Positions 9,110 to 34,016 of a stretch of DNA of 59,348 bases are shown piece by piece (position 1 is the stretch's first letter; the number at the start of each line of letters is the position of its first letter). The position numbers and the translations under genes are program-made. Source of the stretch: Rhodocyclaceae bacterium (GTDB lineage Bacteria > Pseudomonadota > Gammaproteobacteria > Burkholderiales > Rhodocyclaceae); contig DASVZI010000063.1 in assembly GCA_036391735.1 (NCBI GenBank), positions 1 to 59,348 on the forward strand, given 5' to 3'. The notes beneath the pieces were generated by a model. The model was not told the origin of the DNA. It was given only the letters and a program-made list of their open reading frames with translations, and did no database searches.

Positions 9110-9127
9110 CCCTTCGGAGACATAGCC

Positions 9128-9391
9128 ATGGCCAAAGTCCAGATGTATGCCACCGCCGTCTGCCCCTACTGCATCCGCGCCGAGCAGCTCCTGAAGCGCA
9201 AGGGCGTGACGGACATCGAGAAGATCCGCGTCGATCTCGAACCGGAACGCCGCAAGGAGATGGAAACGCGGGTGCCCGGCGCGCGCACCGTGCCGCAGAT
9301 CTTCATCGGCGAGACGCACGTCGGCGGCTGCGACGATCTCCACGAACTGGAGCGGCTGGGCAAGCTCGACGCGCTGCTGGCGGCCGCCTGA
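9128..9391 (+). CDS. grxC: glutaredoxin 3
   Basis: CPYC active site (VQMYATAVCPYCIRAEQLL), 87 aa. Confidence 0.9.
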   Translation: MAKVQMYATAVCPYCIRAEQLLKRKGVTDIEKIRVDLEPERRKEMETRVPGARTVPQIFIGETHVGGCDDLHELERLGKLDALLAAA

Positions 9392-9436
9392 CGCGGCCGG
9401 CATGTTCTAATACGCCTTTTTCGACCGCAGACCATC

Positions 9437-9925
9437 ATGACCGACGCAGCGCAGCAGCAAGCAGGGCAACCCGTTTTCAACGTCGAGAAGCTCTACGTCA
9501 AGGACCTCTCCCTCGAAGTGCCGAATGCGCCGCAGTGTTTCCTCGAGCGCGAGCAGCCGGAAATCCAGGTGCAGCTGGCCACCACCGGCACGGCGGTCGG
9601 CGAGGCCATCTTCGACGTCGTCCTCACCGTGACGGTCACCGCGAAGCTGAAGGAAAAGACGCTGTTCCTGGTGGAAGTCGCCCAGGCCGGCCTGTTCCAC
9701 ATCCGCAACGTGCCGGACCAGGACCTCGAGCCGATCATCGGCGTTGCCTGTCCCAACATCATGTTCCCCTACGCGCGCGAAGTGATCTCCGACGCCGTGG
9801 TGCGCGCCGGCTTCCCGCCCGTCATCCTGGCGCCGGTCAACTTCGAGAACATGTACCACCAGCGCCTGCAGCAGCAGGCTCAATCGGGCGGAGCCGCCGC
9901 CGAAGGCGCGCCCCAGATTCAGTAA
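9437..9925 (+). CDS. secB: protein-export chaperone SecB
   Basis: FNVEKLYVKDLSLEVPNAPQ... typical SecB, 162 aa. Confidence 0.9.
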   Translation: MTDAAQQQAGQPVFNVEKLYVKDLSLEVPNAPQCFLEREQPEIQVQLATTGTAVGEAIFDVVLTVTVTAKLKEKTLFLVEVAQAGLFHIRNVPDQDLEPIIGVACPNIMFPYAREVISDAVVRAGFPPVILAPVNFENMYHQRLQQQAQSGGAAAEGAPQIQ

Positions 9926-9929
9926 GCCC

Positions 9930-10361
9930 ATGCGCCGGCTCGCGCTGCTCGCCGCACTCGTCCTCGCCGGACCCGCCTGGGCGCTCGATTACCTGTCGGT
10001 GGCCGAGCCGGCCGTCATGTACGATGCGCCATCGGCGAAGGCGCGCCCGCTGTTCGCCATCGCGCCCGGCACGCCGGTCGAGGCCGTCGTCACGCTCGAC
10101 GCCTGGGTCAAGGTGCGCGATCCCAAGGGCGATCTGGCCTGGATCGAGAAGCGCTTCCTCAGCCAGCAGCGCACCGTGATGGTGAAGGCCGACCGCGCCC
10201 AGGTGTATGCCCAGCCCGACGACAAGTCGCCGTTGGTGTTCGAGGCCGCGAAGGACGTCGTCCTCGAATTCGTCGAGCCGGGCCCGCTCGGCTGGGCGAA
10301 GGTCAGGCATCGCGACGGTCAGGGCGGCTTCATCAAGGCCTCGCAGGTCTGGGGTCTGTAG
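9930..10361 (+). CDS. periplasmic SH3-like domain protein
   Basis: Signal peptide ([18 protein letters not shown]) and two SH3b-like segments; conserved slot between secB and gpsA. Confidence 0.55.
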
Positions 10362-10374
10362 GGACTCGATTGCC

Positions 10375-11355
10375 ATGAGAATCGCCATCCTCGGCGCCGG
10401 CGCCTGGGGCACCGCCCTGGCGCTGGCCTTCGCGCCGCGCCATGCCGTCGCCCTGTGGACCCTGGAAGCCGACCACGCCGCGGCGATGCGCGCTGATCGC
10501 GAGAACCGCCGCTTCCTGCCGGGCCACCCGCTGCCGGTCGACATGGCGATCAGCGACGACATTCCGACGACGCTGCGTGACGCCCAGTTCGCCATCGTCG
10601 CCACCCCGGTAGCCGGCCTGCGGCCGACGCTGGAGGCGCTGGCGCGCCATGCGCCGGGGCTGCCCTTCGTCTGGGTCTGCAAGGGCCTGGAAGCGCAAAG
10701 CGGCCTGCTGCCTCACCAGGTCGTAGACGCCACGCTGCACGAATCCCATTGCGGCGCCCTGACCGGCCCGAGCTTCGCCGAGGAAGTGGCCAACGGCCAG
10801 CCGACGGCGGTGACCCTCGCCTCCCGCGACGCCGCCTTCGCCAGGCACTGGGCCGAGGAACTGCACGGCCGCCGGCTGCGCATCTACGCCAACGACGACC
10901 TGATCGGCGCGGAAGTCGGCGGCGCCGTCAAGAACGTGCTCGCCATCGCCACCGGCATCTGCGACGGCCTCGGCCTCGGCCTCAATGCCCGCGCCGCGCT
11001 GCTCACTCGCGGACTGGCGGAGATCACCCGCTTCGGCGTCGCGCTCGGCGCCAAGCGCGAGACCTTCATGGGCCTCTCCGGCCTGGGCGACCTCATCCTC
11101 ACCTGTACCGGCGACCTCTCGCGCAACCGCCGCGTCGGCCTAGCGCTCGCCAAGGGCAAGCCGCTCGACGACATCACGCGCGAACTGGGCCACGTCGCCG
11201 AAGGCGTGCCGACCACCCGCGAGGTGATGCGCCGCGCCGCCGCGCTGGGCATCGACATGCCGATCACGGCGGCGGTCCACGACGTGCTCGAAGGAATCAT
11301 CGCGCCGACCGACGTGGTCGACCGCCTGATGCAGCGCGACACCAAGAGCGAGTAG
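10375..11355 (+). CDS. gpsA: NAD(P)H-dependent glycerol-3-phosphate dehydrogenase
   Basis: [16 protein letters not shown]... Rossmann motif; in-frame internal start of ORF 10207..11355. Confidence 0.9.
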
Positions 11356-11494
11356 CCAAGGCGCCCAAGGCGGTCGCATGGGCCGGCGGGGGTGCCCTGC
11401 TCTGCGCAGGTAAAGGAGGAGGCGGACGCCTTATCGCCCTTGTCCGCCGGGGGACACGGAGCAGAGCGGGGCAGCCTTGCCGGACCGAATGGCG

Positions 11495-11959
11495 CTACTC
11501 GCTCCCGACAAACCCGTTCTGCCGCCAGCCTTCGTACACCGTCACCGCCACCGCGTTAGACAAGTTGACGCTCCGATTCCCCGGCATCATCGGCAGCCGC
11601 AGCCAGGACTCGGCCGGGAACTCCGCCAACACTTCTTCGGGCAGCCCCCGCGATTCCGGCCCGAAGACGAACACGTCGCCCGGCTCCAGGCGCTGGTCGT
11701 GCAGGCGCCGCGTCGCCTTGGTCGTCATGGCGAACCAGCGCCGGCCGGCGAGCGCCGCGCGGCAGGCTGCCCAGTTGTCATGGACGGTCACCACGGCAAA
11801 CTCCGCGTAGTCCATCCCGGCGCGCCGCAGCGCCGGGGCATCGATGCTGAAGCCGAGCGGCTTGACGAGGTGCAGGGCCACGCCGGCGTTGGCGCACAAC
11901 CGCACGGCGTTGCCCGTATTGGGCGGGATTTCGGGCTGGTAGAGGACGACGTTGAACAT
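11495..11959 (-). CDS. trmL: tRNA (cytidine/uridine-2-prime-O)-methyltransferase (SpoU class)
   Basis: MFNVVLYQPEIPPNTGNAVRLCANAG... 154 aa; the E. coli gpsA region has the homologous gene. Confidence 0.85.
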   Translation of the reverse strand: MFNVVLYQPEIPPNTGNAVRLCANAGVALHLVKPLGFSIDAPALRRAGMDYAEFAVVTVHDNWAACRAALAGRRWFAMTTKATRRLHDQRLEPGDVFVFGPESRGLPEEVLAEFPAESWLRLPMMPGNRSVNLSNAVAVTVYEGWRQNGFVGSE

Positions 11960-12061
11960 ATGATCTGCAGAACGAGCCCTGTTGTCGTGACCGGGGACGG
12001 CGATGTGGGCCATAATGCGCCGTCGGCGCCATTGTCGCCGGAAACTTGATGGAGTGACCCA

Positions 12062-13771
12062 ATGGCCCGCGCGCCGGAACGGATCCGACTCGGGGACCTG
12101 CTGATCCAGCAGGGACTGCTCACCGAGGAGCAGCTCAAGCTCGCGCTCACCGAACAGAAGCGCAGCGGACGCAAGCTCGGCCGCATCTTCGTCGAGAGCG
12201 GCTACACCACGGAAGATTCGATCGCCAAGGCGCTCGCGCGCCAGCTGCGCGCCGAATACGTCGATCTGCGCAATTTCCAGCCCAAGCCGGACCTCATCAA
12301 GCTGATCCCCGAACCCCAGGCGCGCCGCTTCCGCGCCCTGGTGCTCGACGAGCGCAACGGCGTGCTGCAGGTCGGCTTCACCGACCCCGCCAACCTCGAG
12401 AACTACGACGACGTCTCGCGCCTGCTCAAGCGCGACTTCGACGTCGCCGTCATCATCGAGAGCCAGCTGTTGCCGCTGCTCGACCGCGTCTATCGCCGCA
12501 CCGAGGAAATCTCCAACCTCGCCAAGGACCTGACGCAGGAGATGGGCGACCTGCCGGGAGACTTCGGCGCCCTCCTCGGGACGACCCTGGGAGCCGAGGA
12601 CGCGCCGGTGGTGCGGCTGCTGCAGACGGTGTTCGAGGAGGCGATGAAGACCCGCGCCTCAGACATCCACATCGAGCCGCAGGAAAAGTCGCTGCTGATC
12701 CGCTTCCGCATCGACGGCGTGTTGCACGTCCAGACCGAGGCCGACAGCAAGATCTCCTCCGCCGTGGTGCTGCGCCTGAAGATCATGTCCGGGCTGGACA
12801 TCTCCGAGAAGCGCCTGCCGCAGGACGGCCGCTTCAACATCAAGCTGCGCGGCGCCAACGTCGACGTGCGGATCTCCACCATGCCGACGCAGTACGGCGA
12901 ATCGGTGGTGATGCGTCTGCTTGCGCAGAACGCCGGCCTGACCGAACTCGACCGCCTGCAGATGCCGCCGGCCGTGCTCGAGCGTTTCCGCCACGCCATC
13001 TCCAAGCCCTCGGGCATCGTGCTGGTCACCGGGCCGACCGGCTCGGGCAAGACCACCACGCTCTACGCCGCGCTCAACGAGCTGAACTCGCCCGAGAAGA
13101 AGATCATCACCGTCGAGGACCCGGTCGAGTACCGGCTGCCCGGCCTCAACCAGGTGCAGGTGCACGAGAAGATCGACCTCACCTTCTCGCGGGTGCTGCG
13201 CACCGCGCTGCGCCAGGACCCGGACATCATCCTGGTCGGCGAAATGCGCGACCAGGAGACCGCCGAGATCGGCATGCGGGCTGCCATGACGGGCCATATG
13301 GTGCTCTCCACGCTGCATACCAACGACGCGCTCACCACGCCGATCCGCCTGCTCGACATGGGCGTGCCGCGCTTCATGGTGGCGATGTCGATCCAGCTGG
13401 TACTGGCGCAGCGGTTGGTGCGGGTGATCTGCCAGAACTGCGCCGAGCCGCACGAACTGACGCCGCAGGAGCGCGAATGGCTGAAGTACGAGCTGGGCGA
13501 GCGCGTCGATGCCTTCAAGTACCGCCGCGGCGCCGGCTGCGCGCACTGCGCCAATACCGGCTACACCGGCCGCCAGGGCGTCTACGAGTTCGTCGAGATG
13601 ACCAACGCGCTGGCCGAAGCGGCCAACCACGGCGATCCCAACGAGTTCATCCGCATCGGCCGCGAGCAGATGGCGGGCAACACCCTGCGGCGCGACGCGG
13701 TGCGCCTGGTTGTAAACGGCGTCACCACGGTGGAAGAGGCGATGCACATTTCCAGCCAGCTGGAGGAATAG
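12062..13771 (+). CDS. mshE: MSHA pilus extension ATPase with N-terminal c-di-GMP-binding MshEN domain
   Basis: GspE/PilB ATPase core (Walker A GPTGSGKTT, tetracysteine CQNC...CAHC); N-terminal RLGDLLIQQGLLTEEQLKLALTEQ matches the MshEN c-di-GMP motif. Confidence 0.9.
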   Translation: MARAPERIRLGDLLIQQGLLTEEQLKLALTEQKRSGRKLGRIFVESGYTTEDSIAKALARQLRAEYVDLRNFQPKPDLIKLIPEPQARRFRALVLDERNGVLQVGFTDPANLENYDDVSRLLKRDFDVAVIIESQLLPLLDRVYRRTEEISNLAKDLTQEMGDLPGDFGALLGTTLGAEDAPVVRLLQTVFEEAMKTRASDIHIEPQEKSLLIRFRIDGVLHVQTEADSKISSAVVLRLKIMSGLDISEKRLPQDGRFNIKLRGANVDVRISTMPTQYGESVVMRLLAQNAGLTELDRLQMPPAVLERFRHAISKPSGIVLVTGPTGSGKTTTLYAALNELNSPEKKIITVEDPVEYRLPGLNQVQVHEKIDLTFSRVLRTALRQDPDIILVGEMRDQETAEIGMRAAMTGHMVLSTLHTNDALTTPIRLLDMGVPRFMVAMSIQLVLAQRLVRVICQNCAEPHELTPQEREWLKYELGERVDAFKYRRGAGCAHCANTGYTGRQGVYEFVEMTNALAEAANHGDPNEFIRIGREQMAGNTLRRDAVRLVVNGVTTVEEAMHISSQLEE

Positions 13772-13775
13772 GGCC

Positions 13776-15005
13776 GTGGGCGCCTTCTCTTATCGCGGAC
13801 GCAACGGCGCCGGGGAAATCGTGCTCGGCGTCGTGGAAGCCGCCACCGCCGGGGAGGTCGCCGGCAACCTGGCCAACACGGGCATCACGCCGATCGAGAT
13901 CAAGGCGGCGCCGGCCAGTGCGCTCAAGAAGGGCGACGGCATCCACCTCGACTTCTTCAAGCCGAAGATCGCTCACGTCGATGTGCTGCTGTTCACCCGG
14001 CAGATCCACACCCTGATGAAGGCCGGCGTGCCCGTGGTGCGCGCGCTGGCTGGGCTGCAGGAATCCGCGGTGAACCCGGCCATGAAGGAAGTGCTCGGCG
14101 ACGTGCGCGGCAGCCTCGAGTCCGGCCGCGACATGTCGGTGTCGCTGGCGCGGCATACTAAAGTATTCAACTCCTTCTACCTGGCGATGGTGCACGTCGG
14201 CGAGGTGACGGGCCGTCTGGAGGACGTGTTCCTGCGGCTGTTCGACCACCTCGACTTCGAGCGCTTCATGCGCGAGCAGGTCAAGTCGGCCCTGCGCTAT
14301 CCGAGCTTCGTCATCCTCGCCATGGTGGCCGCGATGGCGGTCATCAACGTGATGGTGATCCCGGAGTTCGCCAAGGTGTTCCAGGGCATGAATGCCGAGC
14401 TGCCGCTGCTGACGCGCGTGCTGATCGGCATTTCCGGCTTCGTCGTCAATTGGTGGTGGGCGCTGCTCGGCGCCGCCGGCGGGGCCGTCATGGCCTTCCG
14501 CAGCTGGACGGCGACGCAGGCGGGACGCTACACCTGGGACCGCGTCAAGCTCAAGATCCCGATCGCCGGCAAGATCGTGCACAAGGCGACACTGGCGCGC
14601 TTTGCGCGCAGCTTCTCGCTGGCATCTCGCTCCGGCGTGCCAATCATCCAGGCCATGACCACCGTGGCGCGCACCGTCGACAACGCCTACCTGGCCGAGA
14701 AGATCGAGCACATGCGCGATTCCGTCGAGCGCGGCGAGTCGGTGCTGCGGGCCGCCATCGGCACCGGCGCCTTCACGCCCATCGTGCTGCAGATGATCGC
14801 CGTCGGCGAGGAGTCGGGCTCGCTCGACGAGATGATGGACGAGATCGCCGGCATGTACCAGGGCGAGGTCGAGTACGAGCTCAAGACGCTGTCGCAGCAG
14901 GTCGAGCCGATCCTGATCGTGGCGCTCGGCGCCATGGTGCTCGTGCTGGCGCTCGGCATCTTCGTGCCGATGTGGGACCTGGGCAAGGTTGCGATCAAGC
15001 GGTGA
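13776..15005 (+). CDS. mshG: MSHA pilus platform protein (GspF/PilC family)
   Basis: Two GspF repeats and three TM segments; GTG start after GGAGGAA; 4 nt after mshE. Confidence 0.9.
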   Translation: MGAFSYRGRNGAGEIVLGVVEAATAGEVAGNLANTGITPIEIKAAPASALKKGDGIHLDFFKPKIAHVDVLLFTRQIHTLMKAGVPVVRALAGLQESAVNPAMKEVLGDVRGSLESGRDMSVSLARHTKVFNSFYLAMVHVGEVTGRLEDVFLRLFDHLDFERFMREQVKSALRYPSFVILAMVAAMAVINVMVIPEFAKVFQGMNAELPLLTRVLIGISGFVVNWWWALLGAAGGAVMAFRSWTATQAGRYTWDRVKLKIPIAGKIVHKATLARFARSFSLASRSGVPIIQAMTTVARTVDNAYLAEKIEHMRDSVERGESVLRAAIGTGAFTPIVLQMIAVGEESGSLDEMMDEIAGMYQGEVEYELKTLSQQVEPILIVALGAMVLVLALGIFVPMWDLGKVAIKR

Positions 15006-15128
15006 TGTTCCGAAAGTCATAGCTTTGCCCCCACAAATTTTGTGGCAAGTGCTAGACTGCGCGCGACACTTTCAATCCGCCGCCGAACCATGAAACTGTT
15101 CGGCCGCTTCGCTTACCGGGAGAAGACG

Positions 15129-15524
15129 ATGAAGGAAAAGGGTTTCACGCTGATCGAACTGATCGTTGTGATCGTGATCTTGGGCATTCTTGCCGCCACC
15201 GCCCTGCCCAAGTTCATCGACATCAAGAGTGATGCGCAGGACGCGGCGCTGCAAGGCGTTGCCGGCGCGGTGAGTTCCGCTTTCGCCACCAACTACGCGG
15301 CGTATCAGGTGAATAGCACGAAGGGCGTCCAAGTCGCCGGAAACGTCAGCGCGTCTTCCTTCACCAACATCATGGCGGGTTCCAGCCTGCCGACGGGTTA
15401 CTCCATGACCGGAACAGCCGCCTGCGGGACCACCGCGGGGGTTGCCGTGCAAATCTCCGTTTCGAACTCCAACAACGCTTCCGGGCACCAGAGCGCCTTG
15501 GCGACCCTGATCTGCACCGGCTGA
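15129..15524 (+). CDS. mshA: MSHA-type major pilin (type IVa prepilin)
   Basis: Short leader MKEKG then [18 protein letters not shown]; Cys pair near C-terminus; followed by a strong terminator. Confidence 0.8.
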
Positions 15525-15544: not shown

Positions 15545-15576
15545 GGGCGGACGGCTTCCCCGTCCGCTTTTGCTTT
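15545..15576 (+). terminator. rho-independent terminator after the major pilin gene (coordinates approx)
   Basis: GCGGACGG-cttcc-CCGTCCGC stem followed by TTTTGCTTT. Confidence 0.6.
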
Positions 15577-15593
15577 CTGCAGCAGGTAACGTC

Positions 15594-15929
15594 GTGAGCG
15601 AAGCACAAAAGGAGCGGGGCGGAGTCCCGGACATCTGCGATCGCCTGGGCGAGCGCTTCCTGCGGCTCGTGCCCCTGAAGGCAGCCGAGGTCAAGGGGCG
15701 CAAGCGGCCCTCCGCGCAGGAGATCAGGTCGATCAGCGCGGGCGCCCTCGACCAGTTCTTCGCGGCAGCGCGCGAGGAACGCGTACGGCATCGGCTCGGC
15801 GTCATCGGCCGGGCCCGCGTCGCGTTCGGTCTTCAGCAGCGTCTGCTCAAGGCCGGCTACCCGCCGCCGCTGGTCAAGCAGGTGCTGTTCGCCCTGCTGG
15901 CCGCGGCCTTTACGGGCGACAAGCGCTAG
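15594..15929 (+). CDS. hypothetical protein, first gene of the insert between mshA and mshQ
   Basis: 111 aa from a GTG preceded by AGGTAA; no recognisable domain; start uncertain. Confidence 0.35.
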   Translation: MSEAQKERGGVPDICDRLGERFLRLVPLKAAEVKGRKRPSAQEIRSISAGALDQFFAAAREERVRHRLGVIGRARVAFGLQQRLLKAGYPPPLVKQVLFALLAAAFTGDKR

Positions 15930-15934
15930 ACACA

Positions 15935-16648
15935 ATGCGGTGGATCAAGGACGCGCTGGGCAAGGCGCTGTCTTCCTGGGTGGCGCGGCACGGCCTCGAC
16001 CATCCGGCTTCCCGCCAGCCCTCGCCCTTCGACTTCGACCTGCCGGGCCGCAAGTTCCTGCATGTCGGCTGTGGCTCCGCGTCCAAGCCTGCCGTGCCGA
16101 AATGTTTCCTGCCGGACGAGTGGCGCGAAATCCGCCTGGACATCGATCCAGCGGTGTCGCCCGACGTCGTGGCCAGCATGCTCGACATGGCGCCGGTTCC
16201 GGATGCCCGCGTGGACGGCATCTACTCCTCGCACAACATCGAGCATCTCTATCCCCATGAAGTGCCGGTCGCCCTGGGCGAGTTCCTGCGCGTCCTGAAA
16301 CCGGGCGGCTTCCTCGTCGCGACCTGTCCCGACCTGCAGAGCGTTTCCCGCCTCATCGCCGACGACCGCCTCGAGGAGCCCGCATACGTCTCCGCCGTCG
16401 GGCCCATCGCTCCGCTGGACATCCTTTATGGCCACCGTTCCGAGATGGCCGCGGGCAATCTCTTCATGGCGCACCGGACGGGGTTCACGCTGCGCACCCT
16501 CGTCGACGCGGTGCGCGCCGCCGGGTTTGCCTCCGTCGGCGGCCTCCGGCGCGAACGCTGGCTGGACCTGTGGATCGTCGCGACCAAATCGCCGGCCACG
16601 GAGGATGAGATCGCGCGGCTCATGGAAGCCTGCCTGCCAAATGAATAG
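15935..16648 (+). CDS. class I SAM-dependent methyltransferase
   Basis: Motif I LHVGCGS, LKPGGFLVATCPD; 237 aa; 8-nt overlap with the downstream TPR/GT41 gene. Confidence 0.75.
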   Translation: MRWIKDALGKALSSWVARHGLDHPASRQPSPFDFDLPGRKFLHVGCGSASKPAVPKCFLPDEWREIRLDIDPAVSPDVVASMLDMAPVPDARVDGIYSSHNIEHLYPHEVPVALGEFLRVLKPGGFLVATCPDLQSVSRLIADDRLEEPAYVSAVGPIAPLDILYGHRSEMAAGNLFMAHRTGFTLRTLVDAVRAAGFASVGGLRRERWLDLWIVATKSPATEDEIARLMEACLPNE

Positions 16649-18878
16649 CGCGTCCCTGTCCGCCCGTGCGGCGGGCCGGCTGTGGATGTACGCCGGGCGC
16701 TGGCTGGCGCGCCAGGGCATGACGGCATTGGCCGAGACCTGCTATCGCAACGGTGCGGCGGCGGGAGTCGGCGGTGCGTCGGCCGAGGCCGGCTTCCTGC
16801 TGAGCCAGCAACTGCTTGCGAGGGGACGGGATCGCGAGGCGATTGCCGCCTGCGAGGAGGTGCTGCGCACGGACCCGCGGCATGCGCGCGCCTGGTGCGC
16901 GCTGGGGGCCGCGCGGCGACGGCAGGCGCAGATGGACGAGGCGCGCGAGGCCTTCGAACGGGCGGTGGCCATCGATCCCCGCTATGCGCAGGCGTGGAGC
17001 AACCTGGGCGAATGGCATCTGATGAAGGGACAGTTCGGCGCCGCTCTCGAGCACATCGACAAGGCGCTGCAGTGCGATCCCGGCCTGGTCGAAGCCCTCA
17101 ACAACCGGGTGGCCGTCCTCTACGAACTCGGCCGCTACAAGGAGGCCGAAGCGACGGCCAAGGAAGCCATCGAGCTTCATCCCGACAACGCGGCCCTGAA
17201 CGTCAATATGGGCAACGTCCTGCTTCATGTCGGCAAGTCGCGGCTGGCGCTCAAGTGCTTCCGCAAAGCGCTCGAGTGCGATCCCGGCTGTGCCGAGGCC
17301 CACCTCAACCTCGCCATGATGCTCGGCGAGACGGCGCGATTCGGCGAAGTCATCGAATACCTCGAGCATGAGATCGCGGTCAAGGGCGAGAGCGCCCATC
17401 GTCTCGCGGCATTGGCGCTGGCGCAGAGCGTCACGGGCGACATCGAGGCGGCCCAGGCGACCTGCCGCAAGATCCTCGAGGACCACCCGGACAACGTCTC
17501 GGCGCTGATCACGCTGGCCGGCTGCCTGGGCGAGCGCGGCGAACACCTGGAGGCGATGGAACTGCAGAAGCAGGTGCTCGAGGCCAATCCGCAGCTGCAG
17601 TCCGTCTGTTCCAGCGCGGCCTTCAATGCCACCTACCTGGCCGAGTACTCGGCCGAGCAGGTGTACGCCTGCCACCAGGACTGGGCTCAGCGCTTCGAGG
17701 CGCCGTTTGCGGCCGAGGCGATCGTCCACGCGCCTGCCAACCAGCCTGACCGTCCCCTGAGAATCGGCTACGTCTCCGGCGATTTCGGCACCCATCCGGT
17801 CGGTTTCCTGCTGCGCGACGTCACCCGCCATCACGACCGCACGAACTACTACATCCACTGCTACTCGATGATGCGGGGCAGCGATCCGATCACCGAAACC
17901 ATCCGGGCCAACGCCGATTCCTGGGTCGATGCCCTGCTGCTCGGCGACGAGGAGCTGGTCGAGCAGATACGCCAGGACCGCATCGACATCCTGGTCGACC
18001 TCTCGGGCCACACCGCGTACAACCGGCTCCCCGTGTTCGTACGCCGTCCGGCGCCGGTGCAGGCCACCTGGATCGGCTACTTCCATTCGACCGGGCTCTC
18101 GAGCATCGACTACTTCATCACCGATCCCTACACGAGCCCGGCGGGCAGCGGGCAGCTGTTCTCGGAGACGCCGGTGTGGCTGCCGCACTCGCGCTTCTGC
18201 TACTCGCCGCCGGACTATGCGCCCCCTGTCGCGCCGCCGCCCCTGCTCGCCGGAGGCGCGCCGGTATTCGGCTGCTTCAATCGCATCGAAAAGGTCGGCG
18301 ACAACGTGGTAGCCGCCTGGGCGAAGATCCTCGAGGCGGCGCCCGGCAGCCGCCTGCTGCTCAAGGCGGGCAACCTCAAGAGCGGCTACTTGTGCGACGA
18401 GATGCGCCGCCGCTTCGCCGCCCATGGCATCGGCGCCGACCGGCTCGATCTGCGCGGCGGCTCGCCGCATCCGGAAATGCTCGAGCAGTACGGCGAGATC
18501 GACATCGCGCTCGATCCCTTCCCGTTCAACGGCGGCATGACGACCCTCGAAGCCCTCTGGATGGGCGTGCCCGTAGTGACGCTCGCCGGCAGCAGCGTGG
18601 TCTCGCGGCAAACCGTCGCCGCGCTGGCCAACATCGGGCTGGCGGGCGAACTGGCATTTCCGGATATCGATGCGTATGTCCGCGGCGCCGCGGCACTGGC
18701 GGCCGATCCGGCGCGCCTGGCGCGGCTGCGCGAGGAGTTGCGGCCGCGCATGGAGGCGAGCCCGCTGCGGCGCGCCGAGGAGTTTACGCGCGACCTCGAG
18801 GCGTTGTTCCGCAGGGCGTGGCAGGCCCATTGTCGCGGCGAGCGGCTGCCCGACGACACGAGGCGCGAGAGACAATGA
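16641..18878 (+). CDS. TPR-repeat protein fused to a GT41 (O-GlcNAc transferase-like) glycosyltransferase domain
   Basis: About 8 TPR units (...AWCALGAARRRQAQMDEA..., ...AWSNLGEWHLMKGQ...) then C-terminal region with OGT-like signatures (RIGYVSGDFGTHPVGFLL...PVQATWIGYFHSTGL...LDPFPFNGGMTTLEALWMGVPVVTL). Confidence 0.8.
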   Translation: MNSASLSARAAGRLWMYAGRWLARQGMTALAETCYRNGAAAGVGGASAEAGFLLSQQLLARGRDREAIAACEEVLRTDPRHARAWCALGAARRRQAQMDEAREAFERAVAIDPRYAQAWSNLGEWHLMKGQFGAALEHIDKALQCDPGLVEALNNRVAVLYELGRYKEAEATAKEAIELHPDNAALNVNMGNVLLHVGKSRLALKCFRKALECDPGCAEAHLNLAMMLGETARFGEVIEYLEHEIAVKGESAHRLAALALAQSVTGDIEAAQATCRKILEDHPDNVSALITLAGCLGERGEHLEAMELQKQVLEANPQLQSVCSSAAFNATYLAEYSAEQVYACHQDWAQRFEAPFAAEAIVHAPANQPDRPLRIGYVSGDFGTHPVGFLLRDVTRHHDRTNYYIHCYSMMRGSDPITETIRANADSWVDALLLGDEELVEQIRQDRIDILVDLSGHTAYNRLPVFVRRPAPVQATWIGYFHSTGLSSIDYFITDPYTSPAGSGQLFSETPVWLPHSRFCYSPPDYAPPVAPPPLLAGGAPVFGCFNRIEKVGDNVVAAWAKILEAAPGSRLLLKAGNLKSGYLCDEMRRRFAAHGIGADRLDLRGGSPHPEMLEQYGEIDIALDPFPFNGGMTTLEALWMGVPVVTLAGSSVVSRQTVAALANIGLAGELAFPDIDAYVRGAAALAADPARLARLREELRPRMEASPLRRAEEFTRDLEALFRRAWQAHCRGERLPDDTRRERQ

Positions 18879-18954: not shown

Positions 18955-21900
18955 ATGACAGCATCGACGGGCGGTTCGCGCTTCGGCATCGCGATGGCGG
19001 CGGTCGTCTTGCGCTGCGCGTGGATCGTCGTCCTTGCTTTTGGTCTGTGGCAGGCCGCGTCGGCCGATACCTACAGCACTCCGGGTACTTATTCTTGGAC
19101 GGCGCCGGCAGGCGTGCTTGCCGTGCAAGTCGAAGCCTGGGGCGGTGGCGGCGGTGGCGGCGCGGCGTCCGGCGCGAACTCGGGTGGCGGCGGCGGCGCA
19201 GGTGGCCAATATGCTTTGGCGGCGAAGGTGCCGGTGGTGCCGGGCAACGTTTACACCATCGTGGTCGGCGCCGGGGGATCCGGTGGAACGATCACGGGCG
19301 GCAGCAGCAGCGGCAACGGCAGTGCTGGCGGCGATTCGAGCTTCGGCAGCGCGGGAGTAGTCTCCGTCATGGCCAAGGGGGGGGCCGGCGGTAAGGGAGC
19401 TAACGGCGCCGGTGTCGACAGCGGAGGTTCAGGCACCATCAATGGCGGTGTCGGCGGGACGGTGTATGCGGGAGGCGACGGCGCCTCGGGAACGACAACG
19501 CTATGGCTCTTCGTTACGGGCGGCGGCGGTGGCGGCGGCGGTGCCGGAAGCAATGGCGCCGGGGGCGACGCGTCGGGGCAGACCGGTGGTACCGGGACCT
19601 CCGTTGGCGGCGGCAGTGGTGGCACCGGTGCGGCGACGGCCGGCAGCGGCGGCAACGGCAGCCAGGCCGGCGGCGGTGGCGGGGGAGCCTTTCAGACGAG
19701 CAACGCCAAGAGTTCGGGAGGCAACGGCGCGCCCGGTCAGGTGGTCATCACGGTCCCCGCAAGGGCGCCAACGGCGACGACCGGCGCCGCTTCCGGGTTG
19801 AGCGGCAACAGCGTCACGCTGAACGGCACGGTCAGCAGCAATGGCGCGACGACGACGACCTATTTCGACTATGGCCCCACGACGAGCTACGGCAACCGGA
19901 TCCTGGCTACGCCGGCCTCCCTCGATGCCTCTGCGTCGAACACCGCGATCTCGCTGCCGCTGTCGGGGCTCGCGTGCAACGCCACGTATCACTTCCGAGC
20001 CGTCGCCACCAACTGGGTCGGGACGAGCACCGGCTCCGACGCGACTTTCACGACCGGCAACTGCTCGCTCACACTGACGAAGACCACCAGCACCACGTCC
20101 GCCTCGGTCGGCCAGTACATCGTATTCACCATCACGGCGGCAAACCCGAACGCCAGCGGCGACCTCGGGCCGCTGACGGTGACCGACAACCTGCCGACCG
20201 GCCTCAGCTACCAGAGCAGCTACGCCGAGCACGGCTCCGTGTCGTTGGATCCGATCACGGGCCAGACGGTGACCTGGAATCTGCAGACGCTGCCGGGCGG
20301 CAGCAGCGAAAGCCTGACCCTGGTCGTCATCCCGACGCAGAAGGGCAGCTATACGAACAGCGCATCATCGGGAAGCATCACCGCCACGGCGCCGGTCGTC
20401 GCCATCGGCGGCGCCTACGTGCATTACCGCATGGACGAGGCGGTCGGCACGTGGAACGGCACCACCGGGGAGGTCGCCGACTCGGGCGCCAAGCATCTGA
20501 ACGGAACGCGGACGAATACCGGGAGTACCTCGCAGTCCGATCCGATCACGCCCAGTCCCACGATCGCGTCCCAGTATCCGTCGGTGACCGGCGGCGGCTT
20601 CTGCAATGCCGGCGCGTTCGACGGCAAGACCATCGTGACGGTGCCGCACAGCGACTTCTTCCAGTTCACGACCAACATGTCATCCACCGCGTGGGTCTGG
20701 CCGAACAGTTGGCCGACCGGCTCCAGCGACCTTTATTCGATCCTGTCCAACGATGTGAACTATGAGTTCCACATCAATCAGCAGGGCAAGCTCTACTGGT
20801 GGTTCTACCTGAACGGGGTAGCTACCTCGATGACGTCCACCAAGACCATCCCGGTCGGTCAGTGGACCCATGTCGCCATCACCATGGACACCACCTCGGC
20901 GGCCAAGATCTACATCAACGGGGTGCTCGACTCGACCATGACGCTGAGCGGCGGCAAGACGCTGACCGCCAATCCCTGCGGCTTCTACCTGGGGGGCGAC
21001 ATCACGACCTCGAACCCGCCGGGCGCCAGCTGCAACTTGATCACGACGCGCGCCTTCCAGGGCAAGATCGACGAGGCGAAGATCTACGACTACACCCTGG
21101 GCCCGACCGAGATCACCGCCGATATGAACCAGGGACGCCAGTGCGCCGGCAGCTATTTCGACCATATCGAGCTGGACTACGACGGCGCCGCCTCCACCTG
21201 CGCTTCGAAGACGGTGGCGGTGAAAGCCTGCATGGACTCGGGCTGCACCTCCCTGTATACCAACCCGGTCACCGTCACGCTGTCGCCCGCCGGCGTGTGG
21301 GGCACCAATCCGTTGACCATCAATGGCGTCGGTACGGCGCTAATCGATGCCTCGAAGCTCGGCGGTGCCGGCACGATTACGATCGGCACCAGCGCCACGA
21401 GTCCCGCGGGCAACAACGCGACTGTTTGCTACAACAACGGGTCGCCCTCGACCTGCAGCGTCAGCGTGGTGGTGCCGGCCTCCTGCCCGTTCGACGCCGT
21501 CGAGACGAGCGCCAATCCCTTCACGCACCTGTACACCAAGCTGTCGGGAACCCAGTTCAACGTCGATGTGCTGGCGCTGAACGGCAATTCGCTGAACTAC
21601 AACTTCGTCGGTCCGGTGGCCGTCGACCTGGTCGATGCGACGACCAGCAGCTGTCCGCAGGGTGCCGGATTGACGCCGGCGCAAACAGTGAATTTCGAAG
21701 CCAAGAACTTCGGCCGCCAGATCGCGACCTTCAATTATTCGGATGCCTGGCCGAACGTGCGGGTACGGATGAAGGGCGGCTCGCCGAGCGTGTCCGGCTA
21801 TGTCTGCTCCTACGACAACTTCGCGGTGCGCCCGCCGAACGTGAACCTGGCGACGGTGGAGCCCATGGGCACGCCGCCGTCGCCGACGGACGCGAATACC

Positions 21901-23271
21901 GTGAAAGCCGGAAAAGCCTTCACGCTGCGCGCGACGGGACCGGCGAGCTACAACGGGACGCTTACCCTGGATGCGACCCGGCTCACCGCCCAGGATCCGA
22001 TGAACGCGGCTATCGCCAGCGGCGGCATCGTCGGCACCCTCCAGCCCGCTTCGCTGACCGGCAACGACACGACGACGACGGGGAATGCGAGCTACACCGA
22101 AGTCGGCTATCTCTATCTGGCGAACGGCGCCTATCTCGACCGCGCGTTCACGGCCGTCGATCGCGCCAACGGCGACTGCGTGACGACCACCGGCACCGGC
22201 GACCCCAACCTGTCCAACACGCTCAGCGGCGGCCAGTACGGGTGCGACGTCGGCTCGGCCGCGGCCTCGCTCGGGCGCTTCATCCCCGACCATTTCAATA
22301 CGGTCACGCTCGGCACCATGGACTGTCCGGCGGGGCTCACCTGTCCGACCGGAAGCGGCATTGCCTACTCGGGGCAGTCGCTGGGGCCGATCAGTAGCGG
22401 CACGCCGCCCACGGTCATCCGCGTGCCGCTCAGCGTGAATGCCGCCGCCGCCGGCGGCACGACGACGCAGAACTACGCCGGCAGCTTCGCCAGCGACGTG
22501 ACGCTCGCCATCTACGACGCCGCGGGCAGCACCGCGACCGCCAACGCCTCGAAGGGCACGTTGGCGCCGACGCTGGTCGCCGCCGCAAGCTTCAACAAGC
22601 AGCCCCCTTCCGGAACCCCAGTTACCAAGACGGGCGGCGTGGCGCAGCCGGCGCCCAGCTTCAGCTTCACCAACTGGCCAACTACGCCGACGGACATCTA
22701 CTTCCGTGCGACGGCGGCCGCCGACGCCATCACGTCGCTGCAATCGCCCGCTGCCAATTCCGTCGAGGGCGGCATCAAGATCGTTACCGGCCGCTTGAAG
22801 ATATCGAATGCGACGGGCGCCGAGACGGGGTCGCTGCCGCTGCCGGTGCCGGTCGAGGCGGACTTCTGGAGCGGTTTGGCGTGGGTATGGAACAGTAGCG
22901 ACAACGTGACGAGTTTGAACAGCGGGTCCATAAACCTTGTGGCGCCATCTGCCGGGCAGTCTGTGTTCGGCAAAACGAGCGTAACCGATGTCACCCAGAC
23001 GGCTAAGGGGAAATGGACCATCGGACTATCCCGCCCGGGCGCCCACAACGTCGGCAGCGTGGACCTGGCGATCGATCTCGGCAACACCCTGCAGGATAAC
23101 TCCTGCCTGACGAGCCATGCCAACGTGACGACTGCCGGCGCCATCCCCTGGCTGCGCGGCAGCTGGTGCTCGAGCATCACTGCCGGCCAGGCCGATCCTT
23201 CCGCGCGCGCCACCTTCGGCATCTACACGCCGGAGAACCGCCGTCAGGTCCATGTGCGTGAGCTCTATTGA
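18955..23271 (+). CDS. mshQ: MshQ-like giant pilus-associated protein (signal anchor, Gly-rich region, DUF11-like repeat, LamG domain)
   Basis: 1438 aa from ATG after GGGAGGAGG; the supplied ORF starts upstream at 18670 by overlap artifact; LamG-like segment (FDGKTIVTVPHSDFFQF...GQWTHVAITMD...IYINGVLD...GKIDEAKIYDYTL); position upstream of the minor pilins. Confidence 0.8.
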   Translation: MTASTGGSRFGIAMAAVVLRCAWIVVLAFGLWQAASADTYSTPGTYSWTAPAGVLAVQVEAWGGGGGGGAASGANSGGGGGAGGQYALAAKVPVVPGNVYTIVVGAGGSGGTITGGSSSGNGSAGGDSSFGSAGVVSVMAKGGAGGKGANGAGVDSGGSGTINGGVGGTVYAGGDGASGTTTLWLFVTGGGGGGGGAGSNGAGGDASGQTGGTGTSVGGGSGGTGAATAGSGGNGSQAGGGGGGAFQTSNAKSSGGNGAPGQVVITVPARAPTATTGAASGLSGNSVTLNGTVSSNGATTTTYFDYGPTTSYGNRILATPASLDASASNTAISLPLSGLACNATYHFRAVATNWVGTSTGSDATFTTGNCSLTLTKTTSTTSASVGQYIVFTITAANPNASGDLGPLTVTDNLPTGLSYQSSYAEHGSVSLDPITGQTVTWNLQTLPGGSSESLTLVVIPTQKGSYTNSASSGSITATAPVVAIGGAYVHYRMDEAVGTWNGTTGEVADSGAKHLNGTRTNTGSTSQSDPITPSPTIASQYPSVTGGGFCNAGAFDGKTIVTVPHSDFFQFTTNMSSTAWVWPNSWPTGSSDLYSILSNDVNYEFHINQQGKLYWWFYLNGVATSMTSTKTIPVGQWTHVAITMDTTSAAKIYINGVLDSTMTLSGGKTLTANPCGFYLGGDITTSNPPGASCNLITTRAFQGKIDEAKIYDYTLGPTEITADMNQGRQCAGSYFDHIELDYDGAASTCASKTVAVKACMDSGCTSLYTNPVTVTLSPAGVWGTNPLTINGVGTALIDASKLGGAGTITIGTSATSPAGNNATVCYNNGSPSTCSVSVVVPASCPFDAVETSANPFTHLYTKLSGTQFNVDVLALNGNSLNYNFVGPVAVDLVDATTSSCPQGAGLTPAQTVNFEAKNFGRQIATFNYSDAWPNVRVRMKGGSPSVSGYVCSYDNFAVRPPNVNLATVEPMGTPPSPTDANTVKAGKAFTLRATGPASYNGTLTLDATRLTAQDPMNAAIASGGIVGTLQPASLTGNDTTTTGNASYTEVGYLYLANGAYLDRAFTAVDRANGDCVTTTGTGDPNLSNTLSGGQYGCDVGSAAASLGRFIPDHFNTVTLGTMDCPAGLTCPTGSGIAYSGQSLGPISSGTPPTVIRVPLSVNAAAAGGTTTQNYAGSFASDVTLAIYDAAGSTATANASKGTLAPTLVAAASFNKQPPSGTPVTKTGGVAQPAPSFSFTNWPTTPTDIYFRATAAADAITSLQSPAANSVEGGIKIVTGRLKISNATGAETGSLPLPVPVEADFWSGLAWVWNSSDNVTSLNSGSINLVAPSAGQSVFGKTSVTDVTQTAKGKWTIGLSRPGAHNVGSVDLAIDLGNTLQDNSCLTSHANVTTAGAIPWLRGSWCSSITAGQADPSARATFGIYTPENRRQVHVRELY
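19130..19730. repeat. GGC/GGT glycine-codon low-complexity repeat tract inside mshQ
   Basis: Runs such as ggcggtggcggcggtggcggc encoding GGGGGGG/GGxGG repeats (about 200 codons, roughly 55 percent Gly). Confidence 0.7.
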
Positions 23272-23272
23272 A

Positions 23273-23749
23273 ATGGGCGGACGCCAGGGCGGATTCACGA
23301 TGGTCGAGCTGATCGTGGTCGTGGTGCTGCTCGGCATCGTGGCCATCATGGCGCTGCCCAAACTCGGCGACATGAACGATTACCGCGCGCTGTCCTTTCG
23401 CGACCGGCTGGCGGCCGAACTCCGCTATGCGCAAAAGACGGCGACCAGCCATCGCCGCGTCGTCTGCATCAAGTTCATCAGCGCTTCGATGACCATGACC
23501 CTGTCGGTCGCCACCGCCTCGGGCTCGGGTATGGCGTGCACCGCCCTGCTGCCGCTGCCCGATGGATCGAGCGGCGTCACCAGTCCCAATGTCGGCAGCG
23601 TGACGCTGGTCGGCATGCCGGCGGTGACCTACGTTCAGCCCGACGGACGCTTCACCAGGGACCTGGCCGGCACGACAAACGCCAGCCTCAGCCTCAGCGT
23701 GAACGGGCTGCCCCTCAGCGTCGAAGGATCCACTGGCTATGTCAATTAG
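23273..23749 (+). CDS. prepilin-type minor pilin/pseudopilin (GspH/MshC-like)
   Basis: Leader MGGRQGG then FTMVELIVVVVLLGI; starts 1 nt after mshQ stop. Confidence 0.7.
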   Translation: MGGRQGGFTMVELIVVVVLLGIVAIMALPKLGDMNDYRALSFRDRLAAELRYAQKTATSHRRVVCIKFISASMTMTLSVATASGSGMACTALLPLPDGSSGVTSPNVGSVTLVGMPAVTYVQPDGRFTRDLAGTTNASLSLSVNGLPLSVEGSTGYVN

Positions 23750-24215
23750 GCGGATGTCCGGATTCACGCTGATCGAGCTGGTCGTCGCGATCATCGTCAT
23801 CTCGGTCGGGCTTGCCGGCGTGCTGGGGGCGTTTCAGGCGGTGGTGCGCAACTCGGCCGATCCCCTGGTGGAGAAGCAGATGCTGGCGCTGGCCGAGCAA
23901 ATGATGGAAGAGGTGATGCTGAAGCCCTATGCAACCGGCGCGGGTTCGATCACCGGCTGCAACCGGTCTGCCGCCGACGACATCTTCGACTACAACGGCT
24001 ACAGTTCGGTCACCTGCACCATCGATGGAACACCCTCGGGGCCGCCCCTGGACGGCTACACGACGGCGGTGTCCGTGGTGCCGGCGGCGCTGGGCGCGAT
24101 CCCGGCGGGGGCGACGGGAGCGACGGCCGCGCAGATCAGCGTCACGGTGAGCCATGGAGGCCAGAACGTGACGCTGCGCGGCTGGCGCGCCAATTACGCG
24201 GCGAACCTGCCATGA
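23739..24215 (+). CDS. prepilin-type minor pilin (PilV/MshD-like)
   Basis: Leader MSIRRMSG then FTLIELVVAIIVISVGLAG; 11-nt overlap with the upstream gene. Confidence 0.7.
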   Translation: MSIRRMSGFTLIELVVAIIVISVGLAGVLGAFQAVVRNSADPLVEKQMLALAEQMMEEVMLKPYATGAGSITGCNRSAADDIFDYNGYSSVTCTIDGTPSGPPLDGYTTAVSVVPAALGAIPAGATGATAAQISVTVSHGGQNVTLRGWRANYAANLP

Positions 24216-25126
24216 GAATGCGCCGCGGCTTCACTCTCGTCGAACTGATCGTGGTCATCGCCGTGACCGGCGTGCTGGCGACTTCGGTGACCATGTTCCT
24301 GCTTCCGGCGATCAACAATTACTTCGACACCAAGCGGCGCGCGAACCTGACCGACATGGCGGATACCGCGCTGCGCCGCATGAGCCAGGACATCCGCCGC
24401 GCCGTGCCGAATTCCGTGGTCGTCATCGCGCCGCAGGCCGGGGACTCCTTCACAGCCTGCTTCAGCCTGGTGCCGACCTCGTTCGGGGGCCGCTATCGCA
24501 CGGCGCCGGACACGGCGAACGATGCATCCACTTGCACCTACACCAGCCCGTCCGCCACCTGCAGCCAGCCGATGATGTCCGGCCTGAAGGCGACGGACAT
24601 CCCGGCTTTCGACGTCTTGACGATGTCTCCCACGCCTTCCGCCACCAGTCCGTCGGTCAACGACTTCGTGGTGATCGGCAACCAGAACGGCAACGACGTT
24701 TATGTCGGAAGCGATCGCAGCGCAATCGCGACCCTCGGCACCCCGCGCACGACGGACGGCATGCTGCGCGTCACCATGGCCGCGGGCACGTCGCCGCTGC
24801 CGATCGGCTACGACCAGGGTCGCTTCGTCATCGTGGCTCAGGGGGAGCAGGTGGTCTATTACAGCTGCAGCGGTAACCAGCTGCTGCGCAACGTCGCAAC
24901 CTTCGCGGCGTTCAAGGCCAACAGTCGGGCCGGTTGCGGCGCCGGCGTGCCGGTGGCCTCGGTGCAGGCGAAGGTCGCCGGCGACGGCGTCAGTTGCACC
25001 GTCACCTACGATCCGGGCGCCACGGTCACCGAGCAGAACGGCCTGGTATGGATGAACGTCTCGCTCACGGAGAGCGGCGAAGCGGTCGCGCTCTCCCACA
25101 GCACGAACGTTCCCAACGTGCCATGA
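24212..25126 (+). CDS. prepilin-type pilus assembly protein (MshO/PilW-like)
   Basis: MRMRRG then FTLVELIVVIAVTGVLA; 304 aa; ATGA coupling. Confidence 0.65.
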   Translation: MRMRRGFTLVELIVVIAVTGVLATSVTMFLLPAINNYFDTKRRANLTDMADTALRRMSQDIRRAVPNSVVVIAPQAGDSFTACFSLVPTSFGGRYRTAPDTANDASTCTYTSPSATCSQPMMSGLKATDIPAFDVLTMSPTPSATSPSVNDFVVIGNQNGNDVYVGSDRSAIATLGTPRTTDGMLRVTMAAGTSPLPIGYDQGRFVIVAQGEQVVYYSCSGNQLLRNVATFAAFKANSRAGCGAGVPVASVQAKVAGDGVSCTVTYDPGATVTEQNGLVWMNVSLTESGEAVALSHSTNVPNVP

Positions 25127-32971: not shown

Positions 32972-33024
32972 CCCACGCTCCTTGCCGGATGATGCGCGCC
33001 TCCATTCTAGCTATTCCCGTCCCC

Positions 33025-33999: not shown

Positions 34000-34016
34000 G
34001 GCGCGCGCCGCCGGCC

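Follow-up and report, generated by a model that had tools for sequence, protein, structure and literature searches.

A Candidate Pilin Glycosylation Cassette with a TPR-GT41 Enzyme in an MSHA-Type Pilus Locus

1. Introduction

In the cyanobacteria Synechococcus elongatus (Ogt, Synpcc7942_0051) and Nostoc punctiforme (OgtA), an enzyme of glycosyltransferase family 41 (GT41) has been found to be required for glycosylation of the pilin PilA and for normal piliation; it has been proposed to act in the cytoplasm, and its gene adjoins pilin genes in 38% of 201 cyanobacterial genomes (PMC9306852). Here, we describe three genes that follow the putative major pilin gene in a type IV pilus locus of the mannose-sensitive hemagglutinin (MSHA) type, carried on a 59,348-nucleotide contig of a Rhodocyclaceae bacterium (DASVZI010000063.1, hereafter the window). 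They encode a small protein, an S-adenosylmethionine (SAM) methyltransferase, and a GT41 protein with tetratricopeptide repeats (TPRs), and we propose, at a rough probability of 60%, that they constitute a pilin-specific accessory cassette for cytoplasmic GT41 glycosylation of the pilin, with the small protein as partner and the methyltransferase as an optional tailoring step.

Cyanobacterial Ogt is the closest precedent for such a pilin-linked GT41 cassette, the likeness being one of domain and gene layout: in both settings, the gene for a soluble enzyme with N-terminal TPRs and a GT41 domain lies beside a major type IV pilin gene, here in about 60 species. Unlike the cyanobacterial system, the one considered here belongs to the MSHA-type locus of Beta- and Gammaproteobacteria and is known from genes alone; it includes an apparently obligate small four-helix partner without a known family and an optional methyltransferase or GT2-like tailoring module that is often fused to the enzyme, and its catalytic domain is nearest to that of SPINDLY (SPY), with Phe where true O-GlcNAc transferases (OGTs) have Cys, so that N-acetylglucosamine (GlcNAc) is an unlikely donor sugar. 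A limited literature search, which is no proof of novelty, found no description of GT41 or OGT-like enzymes in MSHA or other proteobacterial pilin loci. Thus, a TPR-GT41 enzyme beside a pilin is known from cyanobacteria, and what appears to be new is the MSHA and proteobacterial setting, the obligate partner without family, and the modular methyltransferase/GT2-like slot. An earlier reading of the window, made without database searches (the sequence-only reading), had already proposed the three genes as a candidate pilin or adhesin glycosylation module, and the cyanobacterial experiments (PMC9306852) supply that proposal with its precedent.

Modification of exported proteins in the cytoplasm has also been described elsewhere. 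FlmG of Caulobacter, which combines TPRs with a GT-B domain, binds flagellins through its TPR domain and glycosylates them in the cytoplasm (PMC7591256), and cytoplasmic glycosylation of HMW1 precedes its export by Sec (PMC3012730). In Shewanella, the 89-residue four-helix-bundle specificity factor GlfM (SO_3260), encoded beside Maf-2, bridges Maf-2 to flagellin and is needed for flagellin glycosylation, and fused (bipartite) and separate (tripartite) forms of the GlfM-Maf-2 pair interconvert (bioRxiv 10.1101/2023.12.03.569772). The cassette recalls FlmG in that its glycosyltransferase bears a TPR domain (the acceptor-binding part of FlmG) and in the proposed modification of a filament subunit before export; it recalls GlfM in having a small soluble protein, predicted to be a four-helix bundle, encoded beside the glycosyltransferase, a likeness of size, fold, and gene position. 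Both flagellar systems differ from it in their substrates, flagellins that leave the cell through type III export of the flagellum, in their enzymes (GT-B for FlmG, Maf for GlfM-Maf-2), and in their sugar, pseudaminic acid, and in the cassette the TPR array and the small partner occur together.

A further parallel lies in the way the genes are inherited. Each pilA allele of Pseudomonas aeruginosa is accompanied immediately 3′ by its own accessory gene (tfpO, tfpW, tfpX, tfpY, or tfpZ), with which it is inherited and exchanged as a cassette, and in the loci described here a pilin and its accessory genes are likewise exchanged together. TfpO and TfpW are membrane oligosaccharyltransferases that act in the periplasm with lipid-linked glycans, whereas the enzyme considered here is a predicted soluble GT41 protein for which we propose nucleotide sugars as donors. 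What is known of pilin glycosylation in Proteobacteria concerns mainly oligosaccharyltransferases of the periplasm (PglL/TfpO, TfpW). If MSHA-type pili are served by a conserved GT41 route in the cytoplasm, this would be a second mechanism, with a link to the cyanobacterial Ogt-PilA system.

2. A Cassette That Travels with One Pilin Family

The putative major MSHA-type prepilin is encoded at 15126-15524 on the + strand (132 residues; leader MKEKG/FTLIEL; N_methyl E 1.9e-9, TIGR02532). Downstream of it and in the same direction lie a GTG-initiated gene for a small conserved protein of 111 residues (15594-15929; identical at 100% to NCBI protein VF816_05530 of a Rhodocyclaceae metagenome-assembled genome (MAG)), a gene for a class I SAM-dependent methyltransferase of 237 residues with a Methyltransf_11 match (15935-16648), and a gene for a 745-residue protein with eight TPRs and a Glyco_transf_41 domain (16641-18878). 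Only 5 nt separate the stop codon of the small-protein gene from the methyltransferase start, and the methyltransferase and GT41 genes share 8 nt (ATGAATAG), the GT41 start being backed by a 99%-identical database protein of 745 residues and by the alignment of orthologues. The three co-directional, overlapping or closely spaced genes had been read from the sequence alone at these same positions.

Occurrence was assessed in a species-level scan (one genome per species) that gave 80 loci, which were analysed by tblastn and hidden Markov models (HMMs). Wherever a GT41 orthologue reaches 44% identity, it sits in an msh locus; such orthologues come from about 60 species-level genomes across Beta- and Gammaproteobacteria, and none was found unlinked. 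This is the outcome of the neighbourhood comparison that had been suggested as a check on whether the genes travel with msh loci. Carriers include Noviherbaspirillum, Rhodoferax, Propionivibrio, Sulfuricella, Sulfuritalea, Rhodocyclaceae, Nitrosomonadales, Methylococcaceae, and Thiotrichales, and the genes are arranged as pilin, small protein, (methyltransferase), GT41. The small protein is detected by HMM in 48 of the 49 loci with at least 1.3 kb of upstream sequence, the exception (L024) ending just upstream of its methyltransferase gene; small protein and GT41 occur together in 48 of 48 loci whose upstream sequence suffices. In 44 of 46 loci a pilin orthologue is the direct 5′ neighbour of the small protein, no more than about 410 bp away and at a median spacing of ~65 bp. 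Three metagenomic neighbourhoods, at 81%, 64%, and 55% identity, share the order mshE, mshG, pilin(s), a protein of 108-111 residues, methyltransferase/GT41, minor pilins/MshQ, and mshI, with the secretin further on. The conserved core is therefore the small protein and the GT41 enzyme beside the pilin, and the methyltransferase is optional; as for the idea that the trio forms a unit, it stands for the small protein and GT41, together with the pilin, and overrates the methyltransferase, which about 8 of 48 loci lack, one of the closest relatives of the window (L007) among them. Two of the carrier sequences are probably mis-binned or mislabelled: L007 (JBLNBJ010000146.1) is titled ‘Ignavibacteria bacterium’ though its MshE and the MshE of the window are 92% identical, and L023 (CAMDCO010000018.1) is titled as a ‘Bordetella parapertussis’ MAG.

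GT41 homologues of 36-41% identity from Geobacterales, Verrucomicrobia, and others were excluded as members, as they lack both the msh context and the small protein. One such sequence, from an Oryzomonas MAG (L075:6991-13591), presents another pilin-adjacent GT41 arrangement: two Geobacter-type short pilins of 70 residues are followed by a 114-residue protein, a polytopic membrane protein of 641 residues that ends in a TPR tail, and finally a 1202-residue protein made of two TPR-GT41 units with 36-38% identity to the window enzyme, and a relative of the small protein is absent. Pilin N-terminal matches like those of this locus were also seen in L073, L074, L078, and L086.

The pilins encoded beside the cassette belong to a single family; they have ~125-135 residues and end in ATLICTG or a variant of it, and two Cys residues (C94 and C124 of the mature window pilin) flank a variable loop rich in Ser, Thr, and Asn. 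Controls without the cassette came from a metagenome scan in which the MshE alignment picked Walker-A patterns, so that its 80 loci were mostly PilB/GspE paralogues; about 10 were msh loci, and five of these were used. In these five (L087, L088, L090, L091, L095), MshE shares 58-77% identity with the window protein, and the pilins match only over the N-terminal 50 residues.

Presence with one pilin family is accompanied by signs of exchange. In six loci (L016, L017, L030, L033, L043, L048) MshQ and the minor pilins are encoded elsewhere, yet the cassette remains beside the pilin. Between the window and L034, MshE and MshG are 88% and 76% identical, but the pilin, small protein, methyltransferase, and GT41 only 48-51%; between the window and L013 the relation is reversed, at 51% for MshE and 61-65% for the cassette. 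Over all locus pairs, Spearman coefficients of pairwise identities are 0.92 for MshE and MshG, 0.71 for small protein and GT41, 0.61 for pilin and small protein, 0.38 for pilin and GT41, and 0.30 for MshE and pilin, values that carry no phylogenetic correction and are suggestive only. Because pilin-specific presence, rearranged loci, discordant identities, and correlations point the same way when taken together, we treat the pilin, small protein, (methyltransferase), and GT41 as one exchangeable unit. The cassette follows one pilin family and is exchanged with it, independently of MshE and MshG, and it does not follow MshQ. As to MshQ itself, the window protein has 1438 residues, that of L001:12225-15074 has 949 with no DUF11 or LamG match recorded, and that of L003:15529-20373 has 1614 with no glycine-rich domain match, which suggests that diversification of the adhesin is not tied to the cassette.

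3. The TPR-GT41 Enzyme

The 745-residue protein matches Glyco_transf_41 (PF13844) in two stretches (E 1.4e-46; 159.3 bits against a Pfam cutoff of 25), and N-terminal to the catalytic lobes it carries eight 34-residue TPRs in register (residues 48-319), a region matched by many TPR families of Pfam. Together with the Methyltransf_11 match, these results agree with the domain calls that had been made without database searches. No transmembrane segment is predicted in any of the three cassette proteins, all of which are accordingly predicted to be soluble and cytoplasmic.

Among proteins of solved structure, the top relative is Arabidopsis SPINDLY, aligned in a single piece over residues 58-737 (E 1.5e-112), followed by Thermobaculum OGT (5e-95), human OGT (hOGT; ~1e-85, in 3-5 pieces), and Xanthomonas XcOGT (5e-44). 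As in SPINDLY, an O-fucosyltransferase (PDB 7y4i, 8dtf; PMC9715652), the TPRs and both catalytic lobes align with no intervening domain. By HMMER alignment, K551, N547, H385, and D381 are equivalent to SPY K665, N661, H495, and D491 and are invariant in 26 orthologues, K551 and H385 being equivalent also to hOGT K842 and H558; as SPY K665 and H495 are essential (PMC9715652), the catalytic residues of a GT41 enzyme appear to be intact.

The donor is harder to read. At the position that determines donor size, the window enzyme has F629, where SPY has Y744, hOGT C917, and ApHMW1C F517. SPY Y744 limits the size of the pocket and is critical for fucose transfer, and it has been proposed that a bulky residue there disfavours GlcNAc (PMC9715652); by that rule, the bulky Phe at this position makes it probable that the donor is not GlcNAc. 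Donor prediction from the active-site residues of SPINDLY, OGT, and HMW1C was attempted and gave a mosaic from which nothing further could be assigned. The signature of a SPINDLY-type O-fucosyltransferase (SPY Y744, S496, and T748) is replaced by F629, P386, and M633, and with these changes in the donor site, as with the bacterial pilus context, the enzyme differs enough from SPINDLY that use of GDP-fucose cannot be assumed. Of the signature of OGT in the strict sense, C917 of hOGT is replaced by F629 and the metazoan-type intervening domain between the catalytic lobes is lacking, and the equivalog model for HMW1C-type N-glycosyltransferases (NGTs), NF049992, gives 20 bits against a cutoff of 1000. 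By its sequence, then, the enzyme is nearer to SPINDLY than to OGT or HMW1C and yet is not a SPY orthologue. The sequence-only reading had called the domain O-GlcNAc-transferase-like and had named OGT and HMW1C as the types of GT41 enzyme, a view that we revise: the donor-site residues match none of the three types, so neither GlcNAc nor another sugar is to be assumed. We know of no NGT with a TPR array of the SPINDLY/OGT kind.

4. The Small, Predicted Four-Helix Protein

Scans of the 111-residue protein against Pfam and NCBIfam gave no match. Its family is tiny, with 80 representatives at E<=1e-3 among 1.84 billion sequences. The protein carries the motif R-x-x-H-x-L-G-x-I-G-R-A-R-V-A-F-x-L-Q-Q-R-L-L-x-A-G-Y-P and is predicted to be a soluble four-helix bundle (predicted local distance difference test (pLDDT) score of 77). 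Its near-constant company with GT41 in the sequenced loci indicates that it is an obligate partner of the enzyme.

Two proteins encoded outside pilus or msh loci, P0276 (L167:1466-3304, 612 residues) and P0289 (L168:161-2029, 622 residues), contain a distant homologue of the small protein as their N-terminal domain (profile E 2e-10 and 4e-8) together with TPRs and a weak match to the heptosyltransferase-like Glyco_transf_9, which suggests that the small protein may be a general partner module of TPR-glycosyltransferases. In L170, a highly divergent relative lies between a pilin of the same family and a TPR protein. A general role as specificity module, like that of GlfM with flagellins, is conceivable for the small protein.

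5. The Methyltransferase and a Probable Tailoring Slot

The 237-residue protein matches Methyltransf_11 (E 3.9e-9; 37.5 bits against a Pfam cutoff of 21.2) and has a conserved motif-I-like VGCGS. Its AlphaFold2 model (pLDDT 80) matches about 1000 generic class I methyltransferases at a template modelling (TM) score of about 0.5 and E of about 1e-9, and comparison of its sequence with solved structures gave a single marginal match. On this sequence and model evidence it is assigned as a class I SAM methyltransferase with a Rossmann-type fold. Inferring the substrate from sequence or fold neighbours was considered and abandoned, as many unrelated methyltransferases are resembled equally.

The placement of the gene is variable. 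In the 48 loci with both flanks, it is separate and upstream of GT41 in 31, fused to the C-terminus of GT41 in 7, and downstream in 1, and it was not found in 9; one of these nine (L066) does have the gene by tblastn, which leaves about 8 of 48 without it, including L007. Fusion is common more widely: a search for GT41 homologues returned 2354 proteins, and among the top 120 many are fusions of GT41 with Methyltransf_11 of 940-960 residues. In four proteins of ~980 residues, P0095 (that of locus L026), P0072, P0056, and P0106, a GT2-like Glyco_tranf_2_5 domain takes the fusion position of the methyltransferase (residues about 800-955), scoring 32.0, 28.7, 21.9, and 20.7 bits, respectively, against a cutoff of 27. 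The C-terminal position thus looks like an interchangeable glycan-tailoring slot, and because a GT2-like domain alternates with the methyltransferase in one and the same fusion slot, glycan tailoring by the methyltransferase is suggested. The methylated sugar that had been proposed from the sequence alone gains plausibility from this domain swapping and stays an inferred feature.

The methyltransferase could instead act on a protein, be it the pilin or some other. Neither its sequence nor its model reveals the substrate, and fusion to TPR-GT41 would deliver a protein methyltransferase to the same acceptor equally well. Methylation of pilins and flagellins is known, and that of flagellin is mentioned in the FlmG study (PMC7591256). 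Against this, both the occupation of the slot by a GT2-like domain and the dispensability of the methyltransferase in about 8 of 48 loci suggest an interchangeable step of glycan tailoring, and we regard a protein target as unlikely.

6. Proposed Mechanism and Alternatives

In the mechanism that we favour, the soluble TPR-GT41 enzyme would use a housekeeping nucleotide sugar to attach a monosaccharide to Ser/Thr of the adjoining major pilin, and would do so in the cytoplasm, ahead of export of the globular domain. The four-helix protein would most likely serve as adaptor or specificity factor, joining the pilin to the TPR-glycosyltransferase or holding it there, and the SAM methyltransferase would add an optional step, most likely methylation of the transferred sugar. 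The hairpin that follows the pilin gene would hold expression of the cassette far below that of the pilin. The pilin as acceptor, the O-linkage, the cytoplasmic timing, the adaptor role, and the placement of the methyl group on the sugar are all what we infer.

Several points weigh against this scheme. Gene context carries the whole of the case that these pilins are glycosylated. Type IV prepilins are generally inserted into the membrane co-translationally, which leaves a cytoplasmic enzyme little opportunity, and after insertion only the short leader is cytoplasmic, here without Ser or Thr. This topology is the chief difficulty, which the cyanobacterial case faces equally, and it raises a testable question, namely how a soluble enzyme gains access to a pilin that is normally inserted co-translationally. 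The Ser/Thr-rich stretch of the pilin, to which the sequence-only reading had pointed, does lie in a hypervariable inter-cysteine loop and is a plausible acceptor; however, Ser/Thr conservation over 54 pilins is diffuse, with rich columns at S44/S45, T59, S87, S105/S107, S117, T121, and T125, and no single site emerges. The donor site is a mosaic unlike any characterised GT41 enzyme, as P386 agrees with hOGT P559 and differs from SPY S496, M613 replaces the base-stacking His (SPY H728, hOGT H901), and G632-M633 stand where SPY has T747-T748, so that activity and donor are uncertain. No genes for nucleotide-sugar biosynthesis were found when searched for in the window. The need for an extra adaptor is not obvious, given that the enzyme has its own TPR array, and the identity correlations are subject to the limit stated with them. 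Finally, a GT41 open reading frame (ORF) of 945 residues found on 8 contigs (P0116; L005:10001-12838, also L006:1965-4802) continues in frame through a ~55-residue linker, with neither stop codon nor ATG, into a minor-pilin sequence with a prepilin cleavage motif (...RHGQLG/FTLVELIV...). This link to minor pilins is unexplained and could reflect a true fusion, an internal start of an unusual kind, or an artefact of assembly.

A bolder version may be entertained tentatively, though we think it doubtful. The small protein would be the founder of a new family of acceptor-specific partners that bind the TPR enzyme and capture the prepilin in the cytoplasm, as adaptor and holdase in one; GT41 would glycosylate the pilin before insertion, and the methyltransferase/GT2-like plug-in slot would diversify the pilus glycan. 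Such a route would be widespread in Beta- and Gammaproteobacteria and could do without an oligosaccharyltransferase. An interchangeable slot would itself suggest diversification of surface glycans, with a bearing on how environmental and wastewater bacteria (Rhodocyclaceae, Rhodoferax, Noviherbaspirillum, Propionivibrio) interact with phages, predators, and surfaces. Experiments are feasible, as cultured isolates are among the carriers, for example Noviherbaspirillum autotrophicum TSA66 (L008), Noviherbaspirillum sp. ST 5-3 (L010), and Propionivibrio dicarboxylicus DSM 5885 (L021).

Other targets of the enzyme can be envisioned. GT41 might be an OGT- or SPY-like regulator of cytoplasmic proteins of the pilus machinery, such as MshE, or of other intracellular proteins, which controls piliation and is merely co-transcribed with the pilin; the nearest solved relatives, SPINDLY and OGT, do act on nucleocytoplasmic proteins, all three cassette proteins are predicted to be cytoplasmic, and the topological problem of an exported pilin is avoided. 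The cassette, however, co-varies and swaps with the pilin and not with MshE or MshG, msh loci exist that have the same machinery with other pilins and lack the cassette, and the variable methyltransferase/GT2-like slot fits surface-glycan diversification better than signalling, so we judge a regulatory role improbable. The real target might also be the tip or adhesin complex, i.e., MshQ or the minor pilins, whose genes follow immediately 3′ of the cassette in the window, as they do in many loci; MshQ, moreover, is a large protein rich in Ser/Thr, and the GT41 ORF of L005/L006 continues into a minor pilin. Set against this are the six rearranged loci, in which the cassette remains with the major pilin, the fact that a locus has or lacks the cassette according to its major pilin family, and the very variable architecture of MshQ among cassette-bearing loci (949 to 1614 residues). 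MshQ had been named as a candidate target in the sequence-only reading, in part for a TKTTSTTSAS tract that turns out to be simply the beginning of a DUF11 domain, and that suggestion is withdrawn here as very improbable. Least convincing of all is an HMW1C-like N-glycosyltransferase that places a hexose on pilin Asn, for example in the sequon N57-S58-T59, where helix alpha-1 ends: GT41 does include cytoplasmic N-glycosyltransferases that act before Sec export (PMC3012730), the residue at the position for donor size, F629, is the same as in ApHMW1C (F517), and N-x-S/T-like motifs often occur where the window pilin has N-S-T, but the NF049992 score, the end-to-end SPINDLY alignment with its TPR array, and the presence of N57 in only 26 of 54 pilins make this highly improbable.

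7. Organization of the msh Locus

All features of the locus named here lie on the + strand. Upstream of the pilin, an MshE-type assembly ATPase (12062-13771) and an MshG-type platform protein (13776-15005) were identified by NCBIfam and Pfam matches, the ATPase having the MshE-type c-di-GMP-binding N-terminal motif (NF053729, E 2.9e-20). Beyond the cassette, an RBS (ribosome-binding site) GGAGG precedes the ATG at 18955 of an MshQ-like gene (18955-23271; 1438 residues; Gly_rich_2, DUF11, Laminin_G_3, and DUF6701, the last at E 1.6e-44), which is followed by three prepilin-type minor pilin genes with N_methyl matches (23252-23749, 23739-24215, 24212-25126). On their 3′ side lie, in this order, MshI-like and PilN-like genes and genes for a secretin, an AAA_22 ATPase, and a TPR protein; the best model for the secretin is MshL (TIGR02519), at 230.7 bits slightly below the cutoff of 250.2. 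On the basis of the MshE motif, the MshL-best secretin, DUF6701, and the MshM/MshN-like AAA_22 and TPR genes, the locus is classed as an MSHA-type type IV pilus locus. The order of its msh genes differs from that in Vibrio.

A terminator- or attenuator-like element (15547..15578) separates the pilin gene from the cassette. Its hairpin (15547-15567) has an 8-bp GC-rich stem (GCGGACGG / CCGTCCGC) and the loop CTTCC, and is followed by a T-run (15568-15578; TTTTGCTTTCT); it was read in the sequence and is also present in the RNA fold, the z-score of the 81-nt stretch that holds it being only -1.75. A scan for consensus promoters and terminators gave no promoter and did not report this hairpin. 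The three cassette genes have a GC content of 0.63-0.70, the same as the rest of the window, and this uniformity rules out a horizontal-transfer island as judged by composition.

The flanks of the locus recur elsewhere. The run of genes for a rhodanese, a glutaredoxin, SecB, an SH3-domain protein, and GpsA in the window (8705-12013) is annotated likewise in L005, and a divergent SpoU-type methylase gene lies immediately before mshE in the window and in L001, L005, L007, L014, L021, L029, L031, L034, L037, L058, and L066, so that the msh locus occupies a conserved chromosomal site across several betaproteobacterial lineages. Further downstream in the window (32965-34826, maximal ORFs), a biotin-synthase-like radical SAM gene with a BATS domain is overlapped at its 3′ end by a second Methyltransf_11 gene, which may be BioC-like and is not related to the cassette methyltransferase.

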